From a bacterium (GTDB lineage: Bacteria > Patescibacteriota > Minisyncoccia > UBA6257 > JAGOQP01), in the NCBI GenBank assembly GCA_021814695.1, contig JAKAHY010000003.1, positions 20,692-84,691 of the forward strand: a DNA stretch of 64,000 bases, given 5' to 3'. Position 1 is the stretch's first letter; each line of letters opens with the position of its first letter. This document shows positions 20,595-50,993 of the stretch, in pieces. Made by a program: the position numbers and the translations under genes. A model generated the notes under the pieces. It was not told the DNA's origin. It did no database searches and saw only the letters and a program-made list of their open reading frames with translations.

Positions 20595-20713
20595 GCGGTG
20601 GGGAAAATGGGGCTATGGCCTCATTTTTTATATCGGCAGCAGTAACAAAATAAAATAAACGATAAAAGCATTTGACAAACGAATAAAATAATGATATAAA
20701 AAACCTACTGGAG

Positions 20714-20932
20714 GTGTTCTTGAAAGACCAAGCTTCGTGTCCGCGACTCGCTCAGGCAGAACCGTCCACCGAAGGTGGCAAAGCGCTGATCGATTGCATC
20801 GGTCCGTCCGAGAAGTGCTCGGACTGTCCGCTCCGTGACAGCGACTGCCAGATCGCCTGGTTCGGGCAGGAGCCCGACAGGTTCAACAGTTTCCAGCGCC
20901 GTCGGGCGCTCAAGGATCTTCTGGGGGATTAG
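20714..20932 (+). CDS. High-GC small Cys-containing protein (~70 aa; GTG at 20714 or TTG at 20720)
   Basis: Promoter TTGACA-17-TATAAA, RBS GGAGG, terminator CCAGGCGTCGCCTGG plus T7. Five Cys (CPRL...C...C..C...C). Confidence 0.5.
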   Translation: MFLKDQASCPRLAQAEPSTEGGKALIDCIGPSEKCSDCPLRDSDCQIAWFGQEPDRFNSFQRRRALKDLLGD

Positions 20933-23730: not shown

Positions 23731-24054
23731 TCAGTTTGTGTGAGGGGGCTTCTCAACGAAGCCGTTGTCTTCCGCCCAGGCACGGAAGTCCGGTCCGGCG
23801 ACCTGGACGATGTTCTTGATCTCGACGATGAAGATCGTGCGCGGTCGGTAGTCGGTCGGGTCGGTGAACGCCTCCAGCTCTTCTTTGCAGTAGGCGATAC
23901 CGGCGGCCGAGAACATCGGGTTCTGGAGCAGCACTACCGGCAGGCATCCGGAGGGGACGGCGTCCCACTCCAGCGTTTTTCCTGGCACCTCGGTCCCGTA
24001 TTCGACGAGGAAGGTCTCCTTACTCATGTTGCGCGGGTTGATGTAGTAGCCCAT
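23731..24054 (-). CDS. High-GC hypothetical protein (107 aa)
   Basis: Promoter TTGACT-17-TATTAT, RBS AAGGAG, terminator AAGCTTGGCATCTGCCAAGCT plus T-run. Confidence 0.55.
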   Translation of the reverse strand: MGYYINPRNMSKETFLVEYGTEVPGKTLEWDAVPSGCLPVVLLQNPMFSAAGIAYCKEELEAFTDPTDYRPRTIFIVEIKNIVQVAGPDFRAWAEDNGFVEKPPHTN

Positions 24055-24313: not shown

Positions 24314-24704
24314 TTCCGGCCTCCTTTTGAAGTTCTAAACTGTTTAAAGTATAGCATAAAATTAAGATTTGTCAATAAGGTGTGATTAATTACTATTAAC
24401 TGTTTACTATTAACTGATTACTTGTTATCATTCAATTACAACTTAATAGAAGTTATCAAGAGTGGCGGGGAGGGAATTGGCCCCATGATCCGCCCAGCAA
24501 CTTGTCTTAGGTCTCGACGCTTAGGATAAAGTGCTAAATCCAATCCCCGAAGGCGTACTCGTCCTGAGCTCGCCGAAGGAGAGAGATAAGGTAGGTCGAT
24601 TTTTAATGCCTTTAAACTCTTTCCTTCTCGGGAGAGAGTTTTTCTTTGCCTCGTCGAAGCTTTAGCGAAGGCGGGTATTTATTATCCTTTCGGGCAATGG
24701 CTGT

Positions 24705-45014: not shown

Positions 45015-45034
45015 AAACTCCGTTTTTTGTTATC

Positions 45035-45185
45035 CACAGCCATTATTGACGCTGTATATTGATAAGGTACAATAAGAGAGCATAAAGCAATTTATTCCAA
45101 TCGTTGCTTATGTTCGCCAAGGGCGAATCGGTTTCTTGGTGTGAGGCCTTGAAATCAAAAAGTAAGGATTGGGCTTCAAGGTCCC
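45035..45185 (+). promoter_or_regulatory. Promoter TTGACG-17-TACAAT followed by a ~110-nt structured leader ending in an intrinsic terminator (CCCCTCCG-TTTG-CGGAGGGG plus T-run), immediately upstream of the ITPase gene
   Basis: Direct reading of the hairpins. Geometry typical of riboswitch / attenuator leaders. Confidence 0.5.
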
Positions 45186-45191
45186 CTCCGT

Positions 45192-45785
45192 TTGCGGAGG
45201 GGATTTTGTGTATATGGAGAATTATTATCGGCTTATGATATAATCGCGTTTATGTTATCTATAGCAGTCGGAACAACTTCCGAACAAAAAATAGGATATC
45301 TCAAGGAAGTATTAAAGGAGCTCAATATTGATGCTCAAATTTTTCCGTGCGAGGTAAAAAGCTTGGTTTCCGAACAGCCGTTGACTTCGCAGGAAACAAA
45401 AGAGGGCTCAATTAACCGCGCCCGGCACGCATTCGAGCTGACAAAAGAATCGAGAAAGTCCGTTGATTTTGCAATCGGAATCGAGGTCGGATACGAAATA
45501 AACGAAAAGGGAAATTACGAAATATTTTGCTGGACTTCGGTTATTGACGGGAAAGGAGACACTATATCGGGGCAATCGAGTAATTTTTTGATGCCCAATT
45601 TATTTCAGAAAGTAATCAAAGAAGACAAATATGTTTATCATTATCTTGATGAATATATGGCGAGCCACAATGACGTCGTAGAAAAAGCAGTCGGAGAAAT
45701 GATCCGCAACAGAAAGCCGTTTATAGTGGATGCCACAAGAAAAGCTCTCATGTACCATCTGAAGAAAGAAGATTTTAAACAATAA
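45192..45785 (+). CDS. YjjX-family non-canonical purine NTP pyrophosphatase (ITPase/XTPase). The likely true start is ATG 45252
   Basis: SEQPLTSQETKEGSINRARHAF … GIEVGY … DGKG … RKPFIVDATR. Compare E. coli YjjX: EQPFGSEETRAGARNR. Confidence 0.7.
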   Translation: MRRGFCVYGELLSAYDIIAFMLSIAVGTTSEQKIGYLKEVLKELNIDAQIFPCEVKSLVSEQPLTSQETKEGSINRARHAFELTKESRKSVDFAIGIEVGYEINEKGNYEIFCWTSVIDGKGDTISGQSSNFLMPNLFQKVIKEDKYVYHYLDEYMASHNDVVEKAVGEMIRNRKPFIVDATRKALMYHLKKEDFKQ

Positions 45786-45795
45786 TCAAAAACAG

Positions 45796-46728
45796 ATGAA
45801 AAAAGCGGTTAAAATTATTTTTTTGATTGCCGTTGTGGGGGTTGCCGGATACGCGTTCCGCAACCAATTGGAATTTGTCGTTTCGAGATTTAAAACCCAA
45901 TTTTTACCCTGCCAGCAGCCGATAACATATTCCATCGGTTCTTTTGATTCGCGGTTCGGCATTACAAAGGAAAACTTTCTCACAGACGTGAATAAAGCGG
46001 TTCAGATATGGGACAAGCCGGTTAACAGGCAATTATTCGAATATTCTCCCACGGGAAGTTTGAAGATTAATCTTATTTATGATTATCGTCAGGAGGCTAC
46101 AAACAAACTTCAGCAATTGGGTATAGTCGTGGATAACACCAATAGCTCATATGACGCAATCAAAACAAGATACGACACGATGATGGCCGACTATCAGCAG
46201 AAGAAATCGGCATTGGATGTTCGCATCGCATCTTTTCAAAGCCAGCAAGACGCGTACAACGCGGAAGTCAGTTCGTGGAATAAAAAAGGAGGAGCGCCGG
46301 AAAATATTTACAATCAGCTCAATCAGCAAAAAGCTTCCCTGGATGCGGAAGTTGTCGCCATAAATCAGGAGGAGTCGGTTCTGAATGCGGAGGCGACAAA
46401 CATCAATGCTTTGATTGTCGCATTAAATCAACTGATTAACGAATTAAATCTGAACATTTCCCAATATAATGCCGTAGGCGGACAACAAGGGGGAGAATTT
46501 GAAGAGGGGAGTTTTCAAAGCGGTCCGGCAGGTGAATCGATTGATGTCTATGAATTTAGCAGTCAGGATAAACTCATCAGGGTATTGGCGCATGAACTTG
46601 GGCACGCGTTGGGTCTTAATCACGTTAATGATCCTAAAGCGATCATGTACAGATTAAATTATTCAACCAACGAAAGTTTATCGACCGCGGATCTGGCGGC
46701 GTTAAAATCATTGTGCGGTATAAAATAG
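45796..46728 (+). CDS. Secreted metzincin-type zinc metalloprotease with coiled-coil region
   Basis: HELGHALGLNH (HExxHxxGxxH) plus Met-turn AIMY. N-terminal signal/TM. Confidence 0.75.
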   Translation: MKKAVKIIFLIAVVGVAGYAFRNQLEFVVSRFKTQFLPCQQPITYSIGSFDSRFGITKENFLTDVNKAVQIWDKPVNRQLFEYSPTGSLKINLIYDYRQEATNKLQQLGIVVDNTNSSYDAIKTRYDTMMADYQQKKSALDVRIASFQSQQDAYNAEVSSWNKKGGAPENIYNQLNQQKASLDAEVVAINQEESVLNAEATNINALIVALNQLINELNLNISQYNAVGGQQGGEFEEGSFQSGPAGESIDVYEFSSQDKLIRVLAHELGHALGLNHVNDPKAIMYRLNYSTNESLSTADLAALKSLCGIK

Positions 46729-46755
46729 TGCGCTTATTCCGGATTCTTGTGTGTA

Positions 46756-46784
46756 TTGACAATTATATTTATATATGATATACT
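46756..46784 (+). promoter_or_regulatory. Consensus sigma70 promoter TTGACA-17-(TGa)TATACT driving the GC-rich RNA
   Basis: Direct reading. Confidence 0.65.
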
Positions 46785-46790
46785 AACATC

Positions 46791-47121
46791 GTTGTACACT
46801 TAATAATGTCTAAGGTGTGTTCGGGGAGGCGCATATCGCGACGAAGCGTAATGTGCCAAACCGGACACCTCCAAAGGCGCTTCGAGCGCCAGACAGTGGA
46901 CCGATGGTCCACACGGGGCGGCTAGTGCTGCTCCACGAGTCCGGCCGTCAAGAATCGGTAATATCCGGCGGCATCAAGCGGATCAACCCGAAAACCACGG
47001 CTCGACTCCAAACACCCGGGGTAGCGCCCATGCATGCCAACCGCGGCTAAGTCCGCAACCGGCTCATAGGGTAATGCGCCCCACTCCAACAACAGGACGT
47101 TTCTTCGGAAACGTCCTTTTT
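46791..47121 (+). ncRNA. Candidate structured ncRNA (~330 nt, ~60% GC) with paired 5'/3' ends (GGCGCAU/AUGCGCC) and an intrinsic terminator. Identity unresolved
   Basis: Promoter plus terminator (GGACGTTTC-TTCG-GAAACGTCC-TTTTT) on the + strand. No credible ORF. Confidence 0.5.
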
Positions 47122-47186
47122 CATTTACCTTTATTTGGCAATTAGTTCTATAATTAAGATATTAGAATTAACCTGTTTAATTTAAT

Positions 47187-47480
47187 ATGACTCCACAACA
47201 ATTAAGGGAAAAACTGGCCAAAGGAGAAAAGGTTAAGATACTCGATGTCCGTGAGCGCGAAGAATATGAGCAGGGAGATAAAATAGAAGGGGCCGAAAAT
47301 ATGCCTATGGGCAGGGTTTTTGTAGAAGCTCAAAAAGGAACATTGCCGAAAGATGAGCATATAGTGACCGTATGCAAAACCGGAGGCAGGTGTGAAATTG
47401 TCGCCCGCGAACTCAAAAACAAGGGTTATAATATAGAGCATCTTGAGGGAGGAATAGATGAGTGGAAAAAACAAAATTAA
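47187..47480 (+). CDS. Single-domain rhodanese-like sulfurtransferase
   Basis: Active-site loop CKTGGRC. 97 aa. Confidence 0.82.
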   Translation: MTPQQLREKLAKGEKVKILDVREREEYEQGDKIEGAENMPMGRVFVEAQKGTLPKDEHIVTVCKTGGRCEIVARELKNKGYNIEHLEGGIDEWKKQN

Positions 47481-50040: not shown

Positions 50041-50181
50041 AACTTGATTGATAAGATGAGAGAGCAGAAACCAGTTTTTTAATACAAAAAAGCGCCTAAT
50101 TTTTCGGCGCATCACCTTTCACAATCAAAGATCGTTCGTTGCAATTCAAAAAGAGGCCATATTTGCCGATTCTTGTAAGGC

Positions 50182-50209
50182 TTGACAAATATATTCATTA
50201 TGCTATAAT
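50182..50209 (+). promoter_or_regulatory. Consensus sigma70 promoter TTGACA-16-TATAAT
   Basis: Direct reading. Confidence 0.7.
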
Positions 50210-50216
50210 GCACTCG

Positions 50217-50993
50217 TATTGAAAATCAAATAAAAGGAGGGAGGTGAGTGGAGGCGCAAAAAAGCGCCAGCGTCCGAAACAACAACCGCTACTCGTCGAC
50301 CGCTAACCGACATCGTGTCGGTTCTCAGGGCCCGGACCGAAATCTTGCCCGTGGCCAGAGCCGATTATGACTACTGACCAATTGGTCAGAGTCAATCATG
50401 GCTTTTGGCCCAAGGCGGGGATTTGCGGCAAAGGGGTCCCGAACGCGGTAGTAAAGTCCATGGAGGGCACAATGCTTTAGACTAAGGCCTAAGGCCCAAT
50501 CCGACGACAGACGATCCGCCGAGCCTCCAAGCGCGCAAGGGGTGCGCGCTACTACATAAATGACCCCACGGAAAAAAACGTGAGCGGAGGAAAACACCGG
50601 ACCACCATCTGGCACAGAGTAAAGGACTCTGGATAGCCGGCAAACCGCCGCGCCCCAAGTTAAGACGACGAAGCGGCACAGGGGCGTGGCACGAGAGACG
50701 ACGGAGGAGCCACGAATGCATACACTCCGTAGACTCAACTCATAGAGGGATGAAGCGGCGCCTCTATGAGTAGCTGTCCGAACCCGGGAACGACAGGTTT
50801 CCCAGGGCGTGACGCCGCCGGTTAGGGAGAAGACGGAGCGCTCTCCCGCGTAAAAAATGCTCCAAAAGTACTTTGTGCCCCGGGGATAAATGGGCCAAAC
50901 CCTGGGTGGAACAGGCCTCGTAAGCGCGACCGCGTAAGTGTCCCGCAACCGGGAGCGTCCAGCAAGCAGTACGGACGCTCCTTTTTCTTTTTT
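50217..50993 (+). ncRNA. Candidate large structured ncRNA (~770 nt, ~62% GC) bounded by a consensus promoter and an intrinsic terminator (GGAGCGTCC…GGACGCTCC plus T-run). Identity unresolved
   Basis: Sharp GC jump relative to the flanks. Many internal stems, e.g. CUCAUAGAGG…CCUCUAUGAG. All + strand frames are closed (the track shows no + strand ORF of 60 aa or more). The only long ORF (50325..50948, minus) is antisense to the promoter and terminator and is composition-driven. Confidence 0.55.

Follow-up and report, generated by a model that had tools for sequence, protein, structure and literature searches.

A 64,000-nucleotide (nt) stretch of DNA from contig JAKAHY010000003.1 of assembly GCA_021814695.1 (hereafter the window) carries at positions 46791-47122 of its plus strand what appears, from its sequence, to be a real RNA gene: a unit free of open reading frames (ORFs) that runs from promoter to terminator and has a conserved secondary structure. 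The reading we favor, with a probability of about 0.55, is that it is an independent gene for a structured noncoding RNA (ncRNA) of ~300-330 nt, that this RNA represents a previously undescribed family found in a few uncultured Patescibacteria, and that it would act in trans through its 3' module. Sequence comparison supports the presence and conservation of signals for a promoter and a terminator, the noncoding status, the conservation of structure, the narrow distribution and the linkage to a rhodanese gene; the transcription start site, the action in trans and a partner are what we infer. Literature searches found no description of this RNA.

The window has a GC content of 41.5% and belongs to an AT-rich Patescibacteria metagenome-assembled genome; its DNA matches contig DAIENI010000001.1 of GCA_027341185.1 and also GCA_027423255.1. 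The RNA gene sits in a gap of 458 nt, flanked by a Peptidase_M10 (matrixin) gene (45796-46728) and by the gene of a 97-amino-acid (aa) rhodanese (47187-47480). Gene calls were compared across loci from 16 contigs with the neighboring matrixin gene; none of the calls listed for them lies inside the matrixin-rhodanese gap, and the DNA of the gap is identical in every locus retrieved for this set. With a GC content of 0.58-0.64, against 0.415 for the window, the body of the RNA is indeed the GC-rich island that the first-pass annotation, made from the letters alone, had pointed out. Several assembled contigs break at the RNA gene or beside it: locus L006 ends inside the gene, L015 and L017 start inside it, and the contigs of L027 and L028 begin 38 nt upstream of the rhodanese ATG. 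Contig ends at these places suggest strain heterogeneity that breaks assemblies.

The promoter and the UUCG-T5 terminator that had been read as the borders of the unit are both present and both kept in homologs. The −35 hexamer TTGACA (46756-46761) is separated by a 17-nt spacer from a TG-extended −10 hexamer TATACT (46779-46784), and L009 and L016 retain the promoter as TTGACA-17-TGnTATATT, with DNA upstream of it that is only 61-67% identical. Promoters scoring at least 11/12 number ten in the window as compared with 2.5 ± 1.5 in shuffled sequences, an enrichment of about fourfold. An upstream element precedes the promoter, and the exact arrangement GATTCTTGT-N5-TTGACA has a single further occurrence in the window, at 50168-50187; anything else that matches it does so with three mismatches. 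At the other end, the terminator hairpin AGGACGUUUC-UUCG-GAAACGUCCU spans 47094-47117, has a folding energy of −14.6 kcal/mol and is followed by five T residues; L018 possesses a near-identical terminator.

The earlier statement that the unit holds no credible ORF has likewise held up. A 77-aa ORF is present at 46817-47050 and a 56-aa ORF on the minus strand, but the 77-aa ORF has no homolog among 5.8 billion proteins and no Shine-Dalgarno sequence at a proper distance, and the ORFs of neither strand match a Pfam family. Insertions or deletions of one nucleotide within the best-conserved part disrupt all frames on both strands in L009 and L016, and nucleotide conservation runs across these indels and on beyond the stop codon of the ORF. 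L009 shares with the window only the central ~40 codons of the plus-strand frame, with a different start and stop; in L016 the frame is disrupted and there is no equivalent ORF. With its own promoter and intrinsic terminator, an intergenic position and no conserved ORF, the element has the makeup of a trans-encoded small RNA (sRNA).

Homologous loci were found by walking outward from the two neighboring proteins. Long forms of the RNA occur in the window, in L009 (matrixin 85% identical) and in L016, L015 and L017 (rhodanese 92% identical). L023/L025 and L024 have shorter related units, followed downstream by a rhodanese that is 79% identical, and L018-L020 carry an AT-richer hairpin series of ~130 nt; the related forms span ~140 to 340 nt. 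Using a covariance model, R1, built only from the 3' module of the long forms, we recovered the short forms in the position and orientation expected of them (L023 with 26 bits, E = 6e-5; L024 with 21 bits, E = 9e-4), a model-based result that links long and short forms as one family. Run over the window with filters off, R1 revealed no second copy, and the window has no repeats or paralogs of the RNA. The RNA is absent at the syntenic position in L010-L014 (matrixin 64-74% identical) and beside rhodanese genes that lie in another context in L021, L022 and L029. A 22-nt core pattern that matches every known family member had no match in 185,579 GTDB species representatives and none in viral contigs, and in JGI it found only an already-known contig; the initial GTDB and JGI patterns gave no match.

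We also considered and rejected an origin in a mobile or defense element: phage and plasmid collections contain nothing similar to the RNA, the scans of viral contigs were empty, there is no repeat or second copy, and PADLOC returned only coiled-coil noise on the neighboring genes.

The plus strand folds with −148.9 kcal/mol (z = −6.9), as compared with z = −3.3 for the minus strand, and its hairpins have UUCG or GNRA-type loops. A layout of closing helix P1, six local hairpins H1-H6 and terminator was predicted independently for each of the three long-form lineages, which bears out the internal hairpins noticed on first reading. P1, GUUG(U)/(A)CAAC, was predicted separately in all three long forms; its sequence is invariant, so its pairing is beyond a covariation test. 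The features are collected in Table 1.

Table 1. Sequence features of the RNA gene and its surroundings (positions in the window).
Feature	Position	Strand	Remarks
Upstream promoter element GATTCTTGT	46742..46750	+	5 nt before the −35 box
Sigma-70-type promoter TTGACA-17-TGaTATACT	46756..46784	+	11/12 match; extended −10 TG
Predicted 5' end, GUUGU (5' strand of P1)	46791..46795	+	7 nt past the −10 box; pairs with ACAAC 47089-47093
H1, long variable hairpin	46814..46872	+	Outer stem GUGUUCGG/CCGGACAC; inner stem GGCGCAU/AUGUGCC
H2, variable hairpin GGCGC-UUCGA-GCGCC	46876..46890	+	L009 and L016 have a hairpin here of other sequence and length
H3, hairpin GUGGACC-GAU-GGUCCAC	46896..46912	+	GCGGAC-AAAA-GUCCGC in L016, with a compensatory U-A to C-G change (hand alignment)
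H4, hairpin GGGGCGGC-UAGU-GCUGCUCC	46915..46934	+	Module conserved family-wide
H5, long hairpin	46937..47008	+	Base GAGUC.GGCCGU/ACGGCU.GACUC conserved; interior variable, 9-nt deletion in L009
Unpaired H5-H6 junction CCAAACACC	47009..47017	+	CCAAAC present in all long and short forms
H6, 65-nt irregular hairpin	47018..47082	+	Symmetric AACC/AACC internal loop; best-conserved part of long forms
C/A-rich 3' tail ACUCCAACAAC	47083..47093	+	Last 5 nt are the 3' strand of P1
Intrinsic terminator	47094..47122	+	10-bp stem, UUCG loop, T run; homologs keep it with one compensatory pair
Probable rhodanese promoter, −10 box TATAAT	47149..47154	+	Outside the RNA, 3' of the terminator

The two conditions that the first-pass annotation had set for its refutation, conserved protein homologs of the 77-aa ORF or a lack of structural covariation, both turned out in favor of an RNA: no homolog of the ORF was found, and the homologous loci show compensatory changes. 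In A8, a model-guided alignment of long and short forms, 98.6% of the cells are paired as compared with ~40% in slid controls, and seven pairs are changed on both sides, values that none of 500 shuffles reached. Four of these seven lie among the eight pairs of H4, in which all cells (100%) of the long and short forms are paired, and three lie among the 11 pairs of the H5 base. The outer stem of H1, H3 and the terminator contribute one compensatory pair each (in H1 a U-A to C-G change, accompanied by one wobble change), and the inner part of H1 is replaced in L009 and L016 by unrelated sequence that still forms a hairpin. H6 is nearly invariant across the window, L009, L016 and L015; the short forms keep only its base, GGGGCG/CGCCCC, and use it as a terminator stem. 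CCAAAC in the junction is part of the 22-nt core pattern, and the 3' tail, which repeats the ACUCCAAAC motif of the junction, is invariant in the long forms except for one C-to-U change in L015.

Conservation is distributed unevenly along the gene. Among the three long-form lineages, whose rhodanese coding sequences differ by 16%, the 5' module is 58-68% identical and the 3' module 85-91%, and H6 and the tail are nearly invariant. We dropped the idea that evolution of the 5' module is accelerated because this module diverges at about the rate of intergenic DNA, its identity being close to that just upstream of the promoter (61-67%).

A separate observation concerns the short forms. The contigs of L023 and L024 share 98-100% identity along 2.25 kb of upstream sequence and across the rhodanese gene, and exactly over the RNA gene (L023 2290-2440, L024 2250-2440) their identity falls to 37-79%; the differences in stems are mostly compensatory, and L024 has one extra hairpin. 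As far as the sequences go, this looks like an allele-like replacement, by way of either a recombination mosaic or diversifying selection.

We propose the following picture of how the RNA may work. Transcription would start at the strong, near-consensus promoter and end at the strong intrinsic terminator, giving an RNA that is predicted to be a row of stable hairpins, H1-H6, closed by the short GUUGU/ACAAC helix between its 5' and 3' ends. H1-H3 seem free to change sequence as long as they stay hairpins and are probably stabilizers or spacers. The functional part would be the conserved 3' module, that is, H4, the base of H5, the unpaired CCAAAC junction, H6 and the ACUCCAAC tail. We infer that the RNA acts in trans, with its unpaired C/A-rich motifs and the invariant H6 as contact sites for a partner, which could be an RNA-binding protein or G-rich stretches of mRNAs, Shine-Dalgarno sites for example. 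The shared promoter module suggests that the RNA may be co-regulated with the GC-rich unit at 50182-50990. The RNA is tied, functionally or historically, to the downstream rhodanese-cupin-DoxX gene cluster.

Several points weigh against this proposal. The start site and the mature ends are placed from sequence signals. The covariation rests on few events, drawn from three long-form and two short-form lineages; A8 is an alignment fitted to the model; the pairs predicted for H6 and P1 are invariant and so give variation nothing to probe; and palindromes can stay complementary through template-switch mutation without selection on an RNA. When targets were sought by a duplex search against the start regions in the window, the complementarity of the C-rich tail to starts containing a Shine-Dalgarno sequence was generic and singled out no target, and the 5' end of the window RNA paired with the rhodanese start no better than shuffled sequences did (P = 0.6). 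Full-length duplexes with the rhodanese start region gave only meaningless loopy structures. Finally, the tight linkage to the rhodanese gene could mean a role in cis.

Among trans-acting sRNAs with C-rich unpaired seeds, RsaE/RoxS of Firmicutes offers a comparison. It too has its own promoter and intrinsic terminator and presents C-rich single-stranded motifs between stable hairpins, motifs that in the RNA described here could pair with G-rich ribosome-binding sites. The present RNA, however, is three times larger, shows no sequence or model similarity to RsaE/RoxS, and yielded no target in the scans. It also resembles the orphan ncRNAs found by the Breaker laboratory in GC-rich intergenic regions (PMC6429828, PMC8632094, PMC11109978) in being a long GC-rich intergenic region of conserved structure in an AT-rich genome. 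Unlike these, it matches none of the 4227 families of Rfam 15, any survey motifs held there included, and has its own promoter and terminator instead of lying in a 5' untranslated region.

The C/A-rich unpaired motifs favor base pairing, and the invariant internal loops of H6 favor a protein or tertiary contact. It is conceivable, though on balance unlikely, that the RNA binds or sequesters a protein. It would then serve as a sponge or scaffold like 6S, Ms1, CsrB or Y RNA, and the protein would bind at H6 and at the CCAAAC and ACUCCAAC motifs. The stems and AACC/AACC loops of H6 are invariant where coding DNA differs by 16%, and a constraint on every nucleotide suggests more than base pairing would need; the strong promoter, the very stable hairpins with their UUCG or GNRA-type loops and the repetition of the C/A-rich motif would also suit such a role. 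On the other hand, the adjoining genes encode no candidate binding protein, most of H6 is missing from the short forms, and the Rfam searches recognized no known protein-binding motif. The likeness to abundant stable RNAs of the 6S and Ms1 type extends to the gene, which stands alone between a strong promoter and a terminator, and to a structure that is kept while the sequence varies; the RNA described here differs from them in its predicted and covariation-supported layout, a row of local hairpins and not a long rod with a central bubble, in lacking an Rfam match and in its far narrower distribution.

The position of the RNA bears on a further alternative. In five lineages the RNA lies directly upstream of the rhodanese gene and on the same strand, with four different upstream neighbors: matrixin (window and L009), an NTPase (L016), a 64-aa Cys-rich ORF (L023 and L024) and a 114-aa ORF (L018). 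In L010 and L012 both the RNA and the rhodanese are missing. Such an arrangement would be expected of a cis-acting leader of the rhodanese operon, a riboswitch-like attenuator or insulator that senses a signal and whose terminator controls read-through into rhodanese-cupin-DoxX. Two of the homologs add to this. In L024 the 5' end of the RNA (2250-2270) is antisense to the rhodanese start region over ~10 consecutive pairs, CAGUUCUUCG/CGAAGAACUG (P ~0.009), and in L018 the 5' end (2317-2340) forms an interrupted duplex of ~19 bp across the rhodanese AUG (P ~0.03). It is because of these antisense 5' ends that we keep a regulatory link to the neighbor in cis as a rival; the 5' ends in the window, L009, L016 and L023 have no significant complementarity to the rhodanese start region.

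A leader would be expected to have no promoter between itself and the gene it controls, but a YTAYAAT −10 box stands 29-33 nt before the rhodanese ATG in all lineages, between terminator and ATG where the RNA is present. Since this box keeps a constant distance and occurs also in L021, which lacks the RNA, the rhodanese gene appears from its sequence to have its own promoter and the RNA to be a separate unit. The segment that holds the box, from terminator to ATG (47124-47186), is highly conserved among the long forms. The terminator, with its perfect 10-bp stem and UUCG loop, was matched by no competing anti-terminator noticed by eye, no systematic search having been made, and a would-be aptamer would have to tolerate lengths from ~140 to 340 nt as well as the gain, loss and replacement of hairpins. 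We regard a cis-acting leader as rather improbable, and an independent gene acting in trans remains our preferred reading. The two units might still affect one another: the −35 region of the rhodanese promoter would overlap the T-tract of the RNA terminator, so that RNA polymerase transcribing the RNA gene could disturb initiation at the rhodanese promoter.

The second occurrence of the upstream element belongs to a larger unit at 50168-50990 on the plus strand. Here the GATTCTTGT-N5 module precedes a perfect promoter, TTGACA-16-TGcTATAAT (50182-50209), that appears to drive a GC-rich stretch of 775 nt (50216-50990; z = −5.6). Its end, as read by eye, is a terminator-like hairpin with a T run, GGAGCGUCC...GGACGCUCC-U5, which the terminator scan did not list. 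The stretch has no plus-strand ORF of at least 90 aa and no Rfam match; on the minus strand is a 207-aa ORF without a Pfam match, yet called as a gene in a source annotation. Judging from these features the 775-nt unit is a possible large ncRNA, which may be co-regulated with the RNA upstream of the rhodanese gene. Homology between the two was considered and rejected, R1 scoring below 3 bits there and BLAST finding nothing, so that only the promoter module is common to them. The pair flanks a cluster of rhodanese, cupin, DoxX and phosphoesterase genes. One may speculate that both are co-regulated members of a new class of large complex RNAs from one Patescibacteria lineage, with a role as ribonucleoprotein scaffold or ribozyme and not as base-pairing sRNAs. 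We consider this decidedly improbable; if it were true, the replacement of hairpins between near-identical strains would reflect diversifying selection.

It is very improbable that the element has no RNA function at all and is a GC-rich remnant, or a stack of palindromic DNA kept by template-switch or recombination, that is transcribed incidentally. In its favor, imported protein genes seem to account for other GC-rich islands of the window, the contrast between L023 and L024 (flanks 98-100% identical, element 37-79%) points to recombination at this place, and the mirrored fold of the minus strand is weaker by only 4-11 kcal/mol. Yet the element has precise borders in a near-consensus promoter and a strong terminator, both of them conserved, and H6, the junction and the tail are better conserved than adjacent coding DNA, their unpaired bases included. 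Moreover, the six to eight G-U pairs are found on the plus strand only, and there are no repeats or paralogs elsewhere in the window.

The first-pass annotation had suggested a housekeeping ncRNA, naming RNase P RNA, signal recognition particle (SRP) RNA, 6S RNA and transfer-messenger RNA (tmRNA), and it is this part of it that we abandon. Rfam 15 was run at gathering score on the whole window and at E<=10 on 701 nt around the locus and on the 309-nt body. At gathering score only a S-adenosylmethionine (SAM) riboswitch elsewhere in the window was detected and the RNA locus was unmatched; at E<=10 there was no relevant match on the 701 nt, on the 309-nt body or on seven homologous or syntenic loci. 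The models for RNase P, SRP, 6S and tmRNA (permuted tmRNA included), which the annotation had proposed as a check, gave no match at E<=10 on the 309-nt body. For SRP RNA, which is marked by a conserved domain IV motif, Rfam was silent at this threshold. In place of the long rod with a central bubble that characterizes 6S RNA, the independently predicted folds of three lineages show six local hairpins, two of them with covariation. As the annotation had itself noted, there is no tRNA-like T-arm/CCA of a tmRNA: ARAGORN finds no tmRNA in the window.

RNase P RNAs of the Candidate Phyla Radiation (CPR), the group that includes Patescibacteria, have diverged and fall below Rfam cut-offs (PMC8172020), and because they can do so we checked directly the P4-like pair that the annotation had pointed out. 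The strings GAGUCCGG and ACCCGGGG are present, but their pairing is not maintained: the 3' strand changes from CCCGG to CACGG in L009 and L016 without compensation. The 5' strand falls within H5 and pairs there locally, GAGUC.GG(C/U)CGU with ACG(G/A)C(U/C).GACUC, with a compensatory C-G to U-A change, and the string GAGUCC is missing from the short forms. Much the same applies to the proposed closure of the ends, GGCGCAU/AUGCGCC. The two strings exist in the window (46828-46834 and 47074-47080), but the complementarity decays in the homologs, which have GGCGCAG (L009) and GGCGUCA (L016), again uncompensated, and both segments have local partners in the predicted folds. An RNase P RNA would moreover be essential, vertically inherited and present in all relatives, and this RNA is absent from the syntenic spot in L010-L014; the search for a true RNase P gene in the genome of the window covered the window itself. 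So narrow a distribution misfits a housekeeping gene.

Taken together, a highly diverged housekeeping RNA, be it a reduced RNase P RNA, 6S, SRP or tmRNA, is scarcely tenable. Size, GC-richness and terminal closure are compatible with it, as is the sub-threshold divergence of CPR RNase P RNAs, and there is a superficial resemblance of GAGUCCGG to CR-I and of CCAAACACCCGGGGUA to CR-V. Indeed, bacterial RNase P RNA (RF00010/RF00011, including the diverged CPR forms of PMC8172020) is also ~330 nt long and GC-rich in an AT-rich genome, has a terminal helix that closes its ends, and arranges variable peripheral hairpins around a conserved core with CR-I- and CR-V-like strings. But the present RNA matches no covariance model at the thresholds tried, does not keep P4, has no layout of specificity and catalytic domains, is absent from close relatives and from the GTDB representatives searched with the core pattern, and has short forms without the motif; what covariation backs is the local helix of H5. 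For annotation this carries a warning: strings that look like those of RNase P do not suffice to identify a housekeeping RNA.

The possibility that the locus is a small protein gene, in the form of the 77-aa or the 56-aa ORF, is practically negligible: ORFs do exist on both strands and the window and L009 have ~40 central codons in common, but the absence of protein homologs and Pfam matches, the differing start, stop and frame in L009, the frame disruption in L016 with its frame-breaking indels, the conservation past the stop and the lack of a properly spaced Shine-Dalgarno sequence all speak against it.

Very little is known about regulatory and structural RNAs of Patescibacteria, and our literature searches turned up no study of them. 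Patescibacteria genomes measure ~1 Mb; a structured RNA of 330 nt with a strong promoter is a sizeable investment for such a genome and is therefore probably useful. The family constitutes a testable candidate: its ends are defined, its 3' module is conserved, and the genes of the cluster linked to it are related to sulfur or stress.

A second sRNA-like unit lies at 45029-45210 on the plus strand, between the genes of a MacB-type permease and an NTPase. A perfect DnaA-box-like sequence, GTTATCCACAG, is located 8 nt upstream of its promoter, TTGACG-17-TACAAT, and the short forms of the rhodanese-upstream RNA have a similar box, GAGTTATCCAC, at their promoter. The transcript would be ~135 nt long, with long-range pairing and a CCCCUCC/GGAGGGG terminator. 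L009, L012 and L023 have conserved counterparts of this unit, and 14 of its 43 pairs are compensatory; Rfam gives no match to it.

Other GC-rich islands, at 20672-20932 (+), 23731-24054 (−) and 2149-2607 (−), look protein-coding. Among the GC-rich islands of these genomes there are both imported protein genes and RNA genes, a point to be borne in mind when they are annotated. The first contains a 70-aa Cys-rich ORF (20720-20929) with its own near-consensus promoter and a GGAGG Shine-Dalgarno sequence, which by eye resembles the 64-aa ORF of L023; the second and third contain a 107-aa ORF and a 152-aa coiled-coil-like ORF, respectively. The ORFs of these islands have no significant Pfam family, two being without any match and the 152-aa ORF giving a sub-threshold match to Spc7 (16 bits against a cut-off of 34.5). 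The SAM riboswitch mentioned above, the sole Rfam family above gathering score in the window, is a SAM-I riboswitch (S box) at 24450-24592 (+) with a score of 49.2 bits.

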